From Escherichia coli (GTDB lineage: Bacteria > Pseudomonadota > Gammaproteobacteria > Enterobacterales > Enterobacteriaceae): a stretch of 64,000 bases of DNA. Location: assembly GCF_016903815.1 (NCBI RefSeq), contig NZ_CP069973.1. One strand, written 5' to 3'. The first letter of the stretch is position 1, and every line of letters starts with the position of its first letter. The notes below the pieces were generated by a model. The model was not told the origin of the DNA, did no database searches, and saw only the letters and a list, made by a program, of their open reading frames with translations. Shown piece after piece: positions 59,494 through 62,384 of this stretch. Both the position numbers and the translations under genes were made by a program.

Positions 59494-59565
59494 GTTTTGC
59501 AACTCATTGATTTATCGAGATGCGGTAAAAACGTGATGCACGATTTATAGGGCAATACCCTGAAG

Positions 59566-59597
59566 GTGCACCATTCTGGGGCACCAAACTGGTGCGC
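59566..59597. promoter_or_regulatory. tandem NtrC enhancer sites upstream of glnHp2
   Basis: TGCACCATTCTGGGGCACCAAACTGGTGCGC with GCACCA/TGGTGC half-sites. Confidence 0.5.
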
Positions 59598-59826
59598 TAA
59601 AATTGTGCACTCAACACAGTGATTATTTAGCGTAAAACCTGATGAAAAAACAATCTTTATGTAACAATTGTGTGATGATGTGGATACAAAAAATTTACTT
59701 AATCAGCTGGAGATAGCAGATGAATGCACTAAATAAGTGCGTTGAGGTGGGCTGCAAAACAAAACGGCCTCCTGTCAGGAAGCCGCTTTTATCGGGTACT
59801 AAAGTTCTCCACCATCAGCGATGGAT

Positions 59827-60474
<648 letters not shown>

Positions 60475-60590
60475 TTAGATATATTGATAAGAACAATTCT
60501 TATTTATTTGCTCGCCAGGAATTTTCGGAATAAATATGCTTTTGCATAATTCGATATATAAAGACGGTGTAGAGGAAAAGTAGCGAGAAA

Positions 60591-60620
60591 TTCTGCATGG
60601 TTATGCATAACCATGCAGAA
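60591..60620. terminator. 30-bp perfect palindrome, probable rhtA terminator
   Basis: TTCTGCATGGTTATGCATAACCATGCAGAA, 9 bp downstream of rhtA stop. Confidence 0.45.
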
Positions 60621-60628
60621 ATGTAAAT

Positions 60629-61516
60629 TTAATTAATGTCTAATTCTTTTATTTTGCTCTCTTTGCGTACTGTCAGCGTAGACCCCATTGAAGCGGCGAT
60701 GATAGCGCCGAGCGCCAGCAGCTGTATGGGTGTCAGTGTTTCTCCGAGGAAAATCATCCCGGAAACGGCAGCCAGCGCCGGTTCCATGCTCATCAGCGTA
60801 CCAAATGTCCGTGTTGGCAAACGGGTGAGGGCAATCATTTCCAGCGAATAAGGCAGAGCGGTCGAGAGAATAGCGACCGCCAGACCCAATGGAATAACCG
60901 ACCAGTGCCAGAGTGCTTCACCAGCCTGAAGCGCTCCAATTGGCACGAAAATTAACGCTGCAATCAACGAACCAATTGCCACCGTCGCAGGGCCATGTTC
61001 TGCTCCTGCGCGTTGCCCACTTAAAATGTAAATAGCCCAACAAGCCCCGGCCCCCAGAGCCAGCGCACAGCCGGTTAAATCGACATGGGAAACGTCTTGC
61101 CCCAGCGGTAGCAGGAACCACAGACCAAGAACCGCCAGAACAACCCAGACGAAATCTACCGGGCGACGAGAAGAGAACAGCGCCACCGCCAGTGGTCCGG
61201 TGAACTCCAGCGCCACCGCAATACCCAGCGGTACCGTCTGAATAGAAAGATAAAAAAGATAATTCATCCCCCCCAGCGAAACGCCGTAAAACAACAGCGG
61301 TAACCGTTGCTCTTTGGCAAAGCGCAGTCGCCATGGCTTAAAGAACGCGATGAGGATCAGCGTTCCTAATGCCAGACGCAGCGCAGTGACACCCGGTGCG
61401 CCCACCAGAGGAAAAAGTGACTTAGCTAACGAGGCTCCACCCTGAATAGACGCCATGGCAACGAGCAATATGACTATTGGTAACCAGACCGGCATTTTAC
61501 GTAATGAACCAGGCAT
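60629..61516 (-). CDS. rhtA: DMT-family threonine/homoserine exporter
   Basis: ORF track 299 aa; internal ATG (MPGSLRKMPVWL) gives 295 aa, 10 TM. Confidence 0.93.
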   Translation of the reverse strand: MPGSLRKMPVWLPIVILLVAMASIQGGASLAKSLFPLVGAPGVTALRLALGTLILIAFFKPWRLRFAKEQRLPLLFYGVSLGGMNYLFYLSIQTVPLGIAVALEFTGPLAVALFSSRRPVDFVWVVLAVLGLWFLLPLGQDVSHVDLTGCALALGAGACWAIYILSGQRAGAEHGPATVAIGSLIAALIFVPIGALQAGEALWHWSVIPLGLAVAILSTALPYSLEMIALTRLPTRTFGTLMSMEPALAAVSGMIFLGETLTPIQLLALGAIIAASMGSTLTVRKESKIKELDIN

Positions 61517-61868
61517 CCTTTCTCCCACAAATATCTAGACTTAAGTAAAGCGTGGAGTGTACTGGATATACCCAATGCTGGTTGAGCATTTGTTGAAAAA
61601 ATTTTCCCCCGTTTTGACTAAAATGCGCCAGGATTGATGGAATCATTAGTCTGGTGATTAGGAATAATCTGGATGAATGACAGGGAAAACATGCGTAATA
61701 CTTACGCAGTTCTCTGAAAAAGTGATTTAAATTTAGATGGATAGCGGTGTATGGAAACGTTCTGTTACATGAAATGGCCCGTTAGACATCACAAATCGCG
61801 AAGAGTTTCCCATTAATTTTTGATATATTTAAAACTTAGGACTTATTTGAATCACATTTGAGGTGGTT

Positions 61869-62384
61869 ATGAAAAAAATTGCATGTCTTTCAGCACTGGC
61901 CGCAGTTCTGGCTTTCACCGCAGGTACTTCCGTAGCTGCGACTTCTACCGTAACTGGCGGTTACGCACAGAGCGACGCTCAGGGCCAAATGAACAAAATG
62001 GGCGGTTTCAACCTGAAATACCGCTATGAAGAAGACAACAGCCCGCTGGGTGTGATCGGTTCTTTCACTTACACCGAGAAAAGCCGTACTGCAAGCTCTG
62101 GTGACTACAACAAAAACCAGTACTACGGCATCACTGCTGGTCCGGCTTACCGCATTAACGACTGGGCAAGCATCTACGGTGTAGTGGGTGTGGGTTATGG
62201 TAAATTCCAGACCACTGAATACCCGACCTACAAACACGACACCAGCGACTACGGTTTCTCCTACGGTGCTGGTCTGCAGTTCAACCCGATGGAAAACGTT
62301 GCTCTGGACTTCTCTTACGAGCAGAGCCGTATTCGTAGCGTTGACGTAGGCACCTGGATTGCCGGTGTTGGTTACCGCTTCTAA
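61869..62384 (+). CDS. ompX: outer membrane protein X
   Basis: ORF track starts at an upstream non-ATG codon (GTG at 61863); ATG at 61869 gives 171 aa MKKIACLSALAAVLAFTAGTSVA..., C-terminal YRF. Confidence 0.97.
   Translation: MKKIACLSALAAVLAFTAGTSVAATSTVTGGYAQSDAQGQMNKMGGFNLKYRYEEDNSPLGVIGSFTYTEKSRTASSGDYNKNQYYGITAGPAYRINDWASIYGVVGVGYGKFQTTEYPTYKHDTSDYGFSYGAGLQFNPMENVALDFSYEQSRIRSVDVGTWIAGVGYRF

Follow-up and report, generated by a model that had tools for sequence, protein, structure and literature searches.

A perfect 30-bp palindrome between rhtA and dps of Escherichia coli probably encodes an RNA stem-loop that defines the 3' end of the rhtA transcript

Introduction

The 298-bp spacer between rhtA and dps of E. 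coli carries a perfect palindrome at its rhtA end, and the question that it raises is whether this element acts as RNA, at the end of the rhtA transcript, or as DNA, in the regulatory region of the downstream gene. A preliminary description of the locus had offered both readings, a transcription terminator and the binding site of a dimeric regulator. The two genes lie on the same strand, with the dps start codon at ~60330 (-), and the palindrome lies 260-290 bp upstream of this codon, outside the dps core promoter. Positions are those of the window, that is, the whole 64-kb stretch of DNA that was analyzed. Here, we examined the fold of the element, its conservation in related genera, and its position with respect to published RNA 3' ends.

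Results

The palindrome and its fold

The sequence at 60591-60620, TTCTGCATGGTTATGCATAACCATGCAGAA, is identical to its own reverse complement, with arms of 15 nt, and the perfect self-complementarity claimed in the preliminary description is thus confirmed. The symmetry stops at 30 bp because A opposes A at 60590/60621. Since the runner-up perfect palindrome in the window has an arm of only 7 nt and the longest arms in 100 first-order Markov simulations of the window ranged from 6 to 11, the 30-bp palindrome is not a chance feature. The distance to the rhtA stop codon, previously given as 9 bp, has to be corrected to 8 nt (60621-60628). The features of the locus are collected in Table 1.

Table 1. 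Features of the rhtA 3' region in the window, and arms of the corresponding hairpin in related genera.
Feature	Position in window	Strand	Sequence	Basis or remark
rhtA coding sequence, threonine/homoserine exporter, 295 aa	60629..61516	-		Open reading frame list; RefSeq annotation of identical K-12 and O157 DNA
rhtA stop codon	60629-60631	-	TAA	
Spacer between stop codon and hairpin, 8 nt	60621..60628	-	RNA AUUUACAU	Offset roughly conserved, 5-12 nt in most relatives
Palindrome/RNA hairpin, rhtA-sense	60591..60620	-		Self-complementarity, fold, covariation in 74 sequences
Hairpin 5' arm	60620-60608	-	UUCUGCAUGGUUA	
Hairpin loop	60607-60604	-	UGCA	
Hairpin 3' arm	60603-60591	-	UAACCAUGCAGAA	
Hairpin core	60593..60618	-	CUGCAUGGUUAUGCAUAACCAUGCAG	Same in examined E. 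coli variants and three further Escherichia species
3' tail with mapped rhtA mRNA 3' end	60582..60590	-	UUUCUCGC(U)	TRS Supplementary Data 3 and 4, PMC10687069
C-rich, G-poor stretch, putative Rho-loading (rut-like) tract	60554..60583	-		Suggested by composition, 9 C and 1 G in 30 nt
Arms in Escherichia, Citrobacter, Salmonella, Enterobacter			TATTCTGCATGG...CCATGCAGAATA	
Arms in Buttiauxella			TATTTACCGTGG...CCACGGTAAATA	
Arms in Kosakonia			TATTCAGCATGAG...CTCATGCTGAATA	
Arms in Atlantibacter			TTATTCCGCATC...GATGCGGAATAA	

When folded as RNA of the rhtA-sense (-) strand, the palindrome forms a 13-bp stem closed by a UGCA loop, with a free energy of about -19 to -20 kcal/mol. The fold of a 101-nt rhtA-sense segment reached -20.2 kcal/mol (z = -3.96), and none of 200 shuffled sequences was as stable; the element therefore has the stable stem-loop of an intrinsic terminator, in a stem with 5 G-C pairs out of 13 and an A-U rich remainder. 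The opposite strand folds equally well, as is inherent in any palindrome. A comparison of sense and antisense energies over 65-nt segments showed a modest bias (mean -0.8 kcal/mol, p = 0.02), and the pair-level count of G·U described below is the better strand test.

A published 3'-end map places the rhtA terminus just past the hairpin

The TRS study, in which a 3'-terminus caller was run on RNAtag-seq data from E. coli K-12 in LB (PMC10687069), lists a 'Primary' rhtA terminus on the (-) strand with the dominant position at 849165 and a peak at 849163-849170 (Supplementary Data 3), as well as an rhtA 3' UTR of 46 nt (Supplementary Data 4). The fold sequence given in that table for the terminus, AAUUAAAUUUACAUUUCUGCAUGGUUAUGCAUAACCAUGCAGAAUUUCUCGC at -18.7 kcal/mol, is exactly the palindrome hairpin. 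By setting the rhtA coding sequence of K-12 (849210-850097) against window position 60629, position 849165 was placed at 60584, 7 nt past the stem, and the peak at 60582-60589. Thus, the 3'-end mapping proposed in the preliminary description could be taken from published data, and an RNA 3' end about 7-9 nt past the stem, as expected of an intrinsic terminator, is found in vivo in this one dataset. The support comes from a single high-throughput dataset in which one of the three libraries was non-significant (adjusted p = 0, 0.19, and 0.003; PMC10687069). Adams et al. report neither a 3' end at 848852-850273 in their curated Term-seq set nor a Rho-termination region at 848,800-849,299 (PMC7815308), and an rhtA entry is absent from TERMITe. 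However, absence from the lists of Adams et al. says little, because rhtA is weakly expressed (~0.05 read starts per nt) and the power of detection is low in both directions. A mapped 3' end by itself looks the same whether transcription terminates at the hairpin or a longer transcript is trimmed back to it.

The same TRS data bear on whether the region gives rise to a product of its own. Since rhtA was no outlier for 3'-UTR over-expression, in the comparison of 3'-UTR and coding-sequence coverage, in any of three libraries and no transcription start is listed nearby (PMC10687069), an independent small RNA derived from the 3' UTR is disfavored, and an Rfam search of 59500-62000 with E values up to 10 returned nothing at the hairpin. 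A small ORF could be proposed from ATG codons inside the two arms, which open frames of 36 and 32 aa (60504-60614 and 60500-60598, both on the (-) strand), but the frames that start in the hairpins of related species range from 2 to 64 aa, are missing in several genera, and encode unrelated sequences. A small ORF or an independent small RNA is therefore scarcely credible as the reason for the palindrome.

Two neighboring features were recorded along the way. The dps terminator hairpin, GCGGCUUCCUGACAGGAGGCCGUUUUGUUUUG, lies at 59754-59789 (-) and extends to 59844; the primary 3' end of dps is at K-12 position 848334 (PMC10687069). Its sub-threshold Rfam matches (ctRNA_p42d, 26.9 bits; STnc70, 19.9 bits) probably reflect generic terminator resemblance. 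On the other side of rhtA, a gene for a 21-aa small protein, annotated by RefSeq as YliM or as hypothetical, is located at ~61751-61816 (+), between rhtA and ompX and close upstream of the latter.

The hairpin is kept across Enterobacteriaceae while its sequence changes

To follow the element beyond E. coli, one genome per species was scanned, giving 80 Enterobacteriaceae rhtA loci, in 79 of which dps lies ~300 bp downstream of rhtA. A hairpin was found 5-12 nt past the rhtA stop codon in nearly all loci, with arms that vary by genus (Table 1; other genera carry further variants) and an unpaired center of 0 to 10 nt. From a plain MAFFT alignment (A1), which comprised 74 distinct sequences and had been fitted to no structure, RNAalifold predicted the helix with compensatory changes at every pair. 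In this 14-pair helix, standard pairs made up 89% of the cells, compared to 72% when partners were shuffled and 32-46% when partners were slid by 1-3 columns; cells changed on both sides numbered 181, compared to 52 and 26-52; and the covariation score was 0.536, compared to 0.203 and 0.07-0.13, respectively. None of 500 shuffles matched the observed value on any of the three measures, and both-side changes were present at all 14 pairs. The sequences are related to each other, and cell counts of this kind overstate the number of independent events. In addition, some of the paired changes could have arisen by template-switch mutation in quasi-palindromes, without selection.

Judged from these sequence comparisons, the rhtA hairpin is conserved by shape, not by sequence, across enteric bacteria, and the conservation that the preliminary description had called for is present as covariation at a held position. 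That description had also named, as the outcome that would speak against it, rhtA transcripts ending elsewhere together with a palindrome lacking conservation; on both counts the opposite was found, in the mapped terminus and in the covariation.

Two groups differ in what surrounds the element. In Mangrovibacter the conserved hairpin is missing, and a standard GC-rich hairpin followed by a UUUUU run is found further downstream instead (AGCCCGUUCAAACGGGCUUUUCUU and AUAACCCG..CGGGUUAUUUUUU, located 43-60 nt past the rhtA stop codon in locus L069 and 31-52 nt past it in locus L072). In the Enterobacter/Lelliottia group, a conserved AGGCCA motif is seen 3-25 nt past the hairpin (loci L034, L035, L039, L054, L058, and L068), and in some members it makes a second short hairpin, e.g., GGCCACGUCAGUGGCU.

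Within E. coli, BLAST found the site at one place per genome, both strands counted, in 5420 of 5426 complete genomes, a copy count that is insensitive to short sites; the 5407 genomes with at least 99% identity are so scored over the aligned part only and are not a count of perfect 30-mers. Because the palindrome occurs at one place per genome in these 5420 genomes, membership of a REP-like repeat family was ruled out. Among 30 evenly spaced E. coli genomes, the full perfect 30-mer was present in 23, 29 nt of it in 6, and 27 nt in 1. In the common variant, the 3' arm ends in U instead of A on the sense strand, so that the outermost A-U pair is lost and the U-run is extended to UUUUCUC; APEC IMT5155 and THO-003 are examples of the B2-type strains that carry it. 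The core CUGCAUGG...CCAUGCAG is the same across the E. coli variants, and only outer A-U pairs vary. In E. albertii, a double change relative to E. coli replaces a C-G by a U-A pair in the hairpin. Only Escherichia has the perfect 30-bp symmetry; where it reads GGTTA-TGCA-TAACC, Citrobacter reads GGTT-TGCAT-AACC, so that the Escherichia form has one extra A.

As separate observations, the A-to-U change at 60591 occurs in about one fifth of the sampled E. coli genomes (B2-type loci L085, L086, and L002), and E. coli 2017-02-1CC carries an IS1B element between the palindrome and the dps promoter (L003 2661-3428; ~window 60491-60499), flanked by a target duplication, GAACAATTC, which has moved rhtA and its hairpin ~0.8 kb from dps. 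This insertion lies ~90 bp from the palindrome and was set aside as unrelated to it.

The pairing pattern points to selection on RNA of the rhtA-sense strand

A transition in one arm of a paired element creates either a G·T or an A·C mismatch. The first is tolerated as G·U in RNA of the strand concerned, the second solely on the opposite strand, and equal numbers of the two are expected if the site evolves neutrally or functions as duplex DNA. On the rhtA-sense strand, we counted 63 G·U cells and 25 A·C cells, and 54 and 13, respectively, for the inner 11 pairs. With a strand-symmetric hairpin finder, the unique hairpins gave 22 G·U against 4 A·C. When shared ancestry is allowed for, we count roughly 13 independent sense-strand G·U events against 4 A·C events. 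Moreover, Buttiauxella shows the series G-C, G·U, A-U and Kosakonia the series C-G, U·G, U-A; series of this type are the classic compensatory route in RNA. Taken together, the excess of G·U and the wobble series indicate selection on RNA transcribed from the rhtA-sense strand. Template-switch mutation could help keep quasi-palindromes perfect, and it would not yield a G·U bias.

The dps promoter sites of the same spacer are conserved differently

The alternative raised in the preliminary description was a site for a dimeric regulator; the palindrome would then be a DNA operator from which a dimeric transcription factor acts distally on dps, or on rhtA. A perfect 30-bp inverted repeat that is nearly invariant within E. 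coli and stands upstream of a heavily regulated promoter would suit this reading, and the distal dps regulatory region that contains the palindrome was reported to be important for full dps expression (PMC4433220). Against it, an operator should keep its half-sites at orthologous loci and hold them at a fixed spacing, but all 14 paired columns vary on both sides, the arms differing by genus with complementarity kept (Table 1), and the distance between arms runs from 0 to 10 nt. The G·U versus A·C asymmetry would be meaningless for duplex DNA. Half-sites do not occur above chance elsewhere in the 64-kb window, and no link between the palindrome and any regulator was found in the literature; a search for rhtA together with the palindrome, bicyclomycin, or ProQ likewise found nothing relevant.

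An internal comparison is provided by the dps promoter itself. In a whole-spacer alignment of 17 genera (A2), the mid-spacer could not be aligned and the hairpin was kept in pairing only, whereas the dps core promoter was invariant in sequence, including CTATTA-N4-GATAGG (60416-60431), GCTATACTT with the -10 element, and the leader with the ribosome-binding site. Two blocks of this promoter resemble known sites and are invariant or nearly so across the 17 genera: CTATTAGTGTGATAGG at 60416-60431 (-), which is OxyR-site-like, and ATAGCCGGTGCTAT at 60380-60393 (-), an inverted repeat overlapping the -10 element. The latter, ATAGC-N4-GCTAT, is MntR-box-like. An MntR site within the palindrome was accordingly rejected, the MntR-box-like motif lying over the dps -10 element and not in the palindrome. 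The likeness of the Salmonella form (TGATATG-C-ATAATCA) to a Fur box was also dropped, the arms in other genera being unrelated. With arms and spacing variable, a strand bias of G·U, and the true operators of the same spacer invariant, the proposed dimeric regulator site is unsupported and we regard it as very unlikely.

A different action at the level of DNA is extrusion of a cruciform, or other branched DNA, as a target for nucleoid proteins such as Dps. The single-stranded DNA hairpin at the palindrome is stable (-13.3 kcal/mol, z = -6.2), and a preference of Dps for branched DNA and inverted repeats has been proposed by the Ozoline group; in their footprinting, a stretch ~175 bp from primer dps_F1 was protected from DNase I (PMC4433220), and this stretch directly adjoins the palindrome. 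Primer dps_F2 of the same experiments anneals on the dps-proximal palindrome arm. However, the protected site (CTTTTCCTCTACACCG...) lies beside the palindrome, not within it, and Dps binding was weaker for the distal fragment, which bears the palindrome, than for the proximal one (PMC4433220). The strand-asymmetric G·U pattern favors RNA, and a 30-bp cruciform that extrudes in vivo around a 4-nt center is hypothetical. We consider a role as a cruciform target to be highly improbable.

The tail past the hairpin is poor in U

The remaining alternative concerns the kind of RNA element, namely a canonical intrinsic terminator that is sufficient by itself, the hairpin and UUUCUC releasing RNA polymerase without a factor. 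The stable hairpin, a mapped 3' end at the classic release distance of 7 nt past the stem, the three to four U directly past the stem in E. coli (UUUU in B2-type strains), and the lack of a nearby Rho-termination region in the lists of Adams et al. are all in keeping with it. However, the sense-strand tail, UUUCUCGCUACUUUUCC, has 4 U in its first 8 nt and so does not provide the U-rich tract of 7-8 nt past the stem that marks an intrinsic terminator; the U-tract check suggested in the preliminary description thus gave a weak tract. A consensus terminator/promoter scan made no call at the hairpin, an A-tract upstream is missing (the upstream spacer is AUUUACAU), and the share of G-C pairs in the stem is low.

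The related species speak against this reading as well. Under a permissive U-tract rule (5 or more T within 8 nt, counted from 0-2 nt past the stem), 16 of 79 loci pass at the rhtA hairpin and 63 fail, and in 59 of the 79 a canonical-looking terminator is absent anywhere between rhtA and dps. The tails past the full stem in related species are usually C-rich and U-poor, e.g., UUCCCCC, UUCCCC, UCCCCCUGCC, AUCCCCCCAG, and UCCCCCUG. Because 63 of 79 relatives keep the hairpin without a U-rich tail, the conserved function of the hairpin appears to be independent of a U-tract. In E. coli, UUUCUC (K-12, O157) or UUUUCUC (B2-type) replaces the AAUAUUC of most relatives, so that the E. coli element is possibly an intermediate terminator: its short proximal U3-U4 run could confer partial termination activity, and the A-to-U change of B2-type strains may bring the hairpin closer to a canonical terminator. 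Of the terminator proposed in the preliminary description, the stable fold, the 3' end, and the covariation stand, while the weak U-tract does not fit a textbook intrinsic terminator. We consider a self-sufficient canonical terminator rather unlikely.

A precedent for hairpins of this kind exists. Dar and Sorek (2018) reported that Rho-dependent transcripts end precisely past stable stem-loops that lack U-tracts and upstream A-tracts, that this class shows an excess of C over G downstream, that the stem-loops shield the RNA from PNPase and RNase II, and that terminators may switch type simply through their U content (PMC6061677). At rhtA we find such an arrangement, a stem before a precise 3' end with neither a U-rich tail nor an A-tract. 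An excess of C over G was also seen downstream in the 74 loci, with a skew of 0.3-0.45 in most bins from +46 to +195, a value that is uncontrolled for spacer composition and may simply reflect the AT-rich composition upstream of a promoter.

Discussion

We conclude that the palindrome very probably encodes an RNA stem-loop that defines the 3' end of rhtA and would block exonucleases, and that in E. coli it is probably also a weak intrinsic terminator, with Rho possibly finishing the task. According to this model, the rhtA (-) transcript would end in the 13-bp hairpin that begins 8 nt past the stop codon, and the hairpin would set the mature 3' end and bar the way to 3'-to-5' exonucleases. The ancestral role was most likely that of a protective stem-loop, because most Enterobacteriaceae hairpins are without a U-tract; E. 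coli would then have gained a short U-run by which the hairpin probably terminates some transcription on its own. Read-through could end further downstream, plausibly through Rho acting on the C-rich tract, and the hairpin, standing between rhtA transcription and the dps promoter region on the same strand, may insulate dps.

The mRNA channel of the ribosome covers roughly 9 nt past the stop codon, and with a gap of 8 nt between this codon and the hairpin a terminating ribosome would reach about the base of the helix, so the hairpin can presumably stay folded during translation. During translation, naked RNA upstream of the hairpin would presumably be unavailable.

A more elaborate possibility, which we think unlikely, is that the hairpin does more than passively end the message and is a conserved element, deliberately kept free of a U-tract, whose leakiness is tuned by Rho, by translation at the stop codon, or by an RNA-binding protein. 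If true, transcription of rhtA would be coupled to, or insulated from, the dps promoter region, which lies on the same strand ~200 bp further downstream, and the family-wide hold of the hairpin position and of its UAUU...AAUA base would be explained.

As for what the result means, the rhtA transcription unit now has a fixed 3' boundary, which has little importance beyond annotation: the rhtA 3'-end stem-loop is ordinary and its terminus is already in a published table, and what is new in the conservation analysis is detail, the kind of element being familiar. The perfect palindrome is a refinement, specific to Escherichia, of an older hairpin, and a candidate distal operator is removed from the well-studied regulatory region of dps. 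The locus is also a clean small case in which an RNA hairpin can be separated from a protein site by covariation, loop length, G·U asymmetry, and the contrast with invariant operators. Finally, the rhtA hairpin may be a terminator in transition from the U-tract-less to the U-tract type.

Set beside known systems, the rhtA element resembles the OxyR- and MntR-type operators of dps in being an intergenic inverted repeat upstream of that gene, but those sites are conserved in sequence, while the rhtA hairpin is conserved in pairing, with variable spacing and an RNA-type wobble asymmetry. It shares with REP/BIME elements an extragenic position at the 3' end of a gene, where such palindromes can stabilize the upstream mRNA; unlike them, it is single-copy, lacks the REP consensus, and occupies one orthologous position. 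With canonical intrinsic terminators it has in common a hairpin after the stop codon, a 3' end 7 nt past the stem, and a usual stem length and energy, but it lacks a U-tract in most relatives and has a weak one in E. coli, it has no upstream A-tract, and its stem is A-U rich, with 5 of 13 pairs G-C. It also resembles the protective stem-loops of Dar and Sorek (PMC6061677): the stem stands immediately before a precise steady-state 3' end, U is reduced past the stem, an upstream A-tract is absent, the downstream sequence has an apparent excess of C over G, and expression of the gene is weak. Unlike that class, the E. coli rhtA tail keeps a run of 3-4 U, so that it may represent a mixed or transitional case, in which Rho might play a part.
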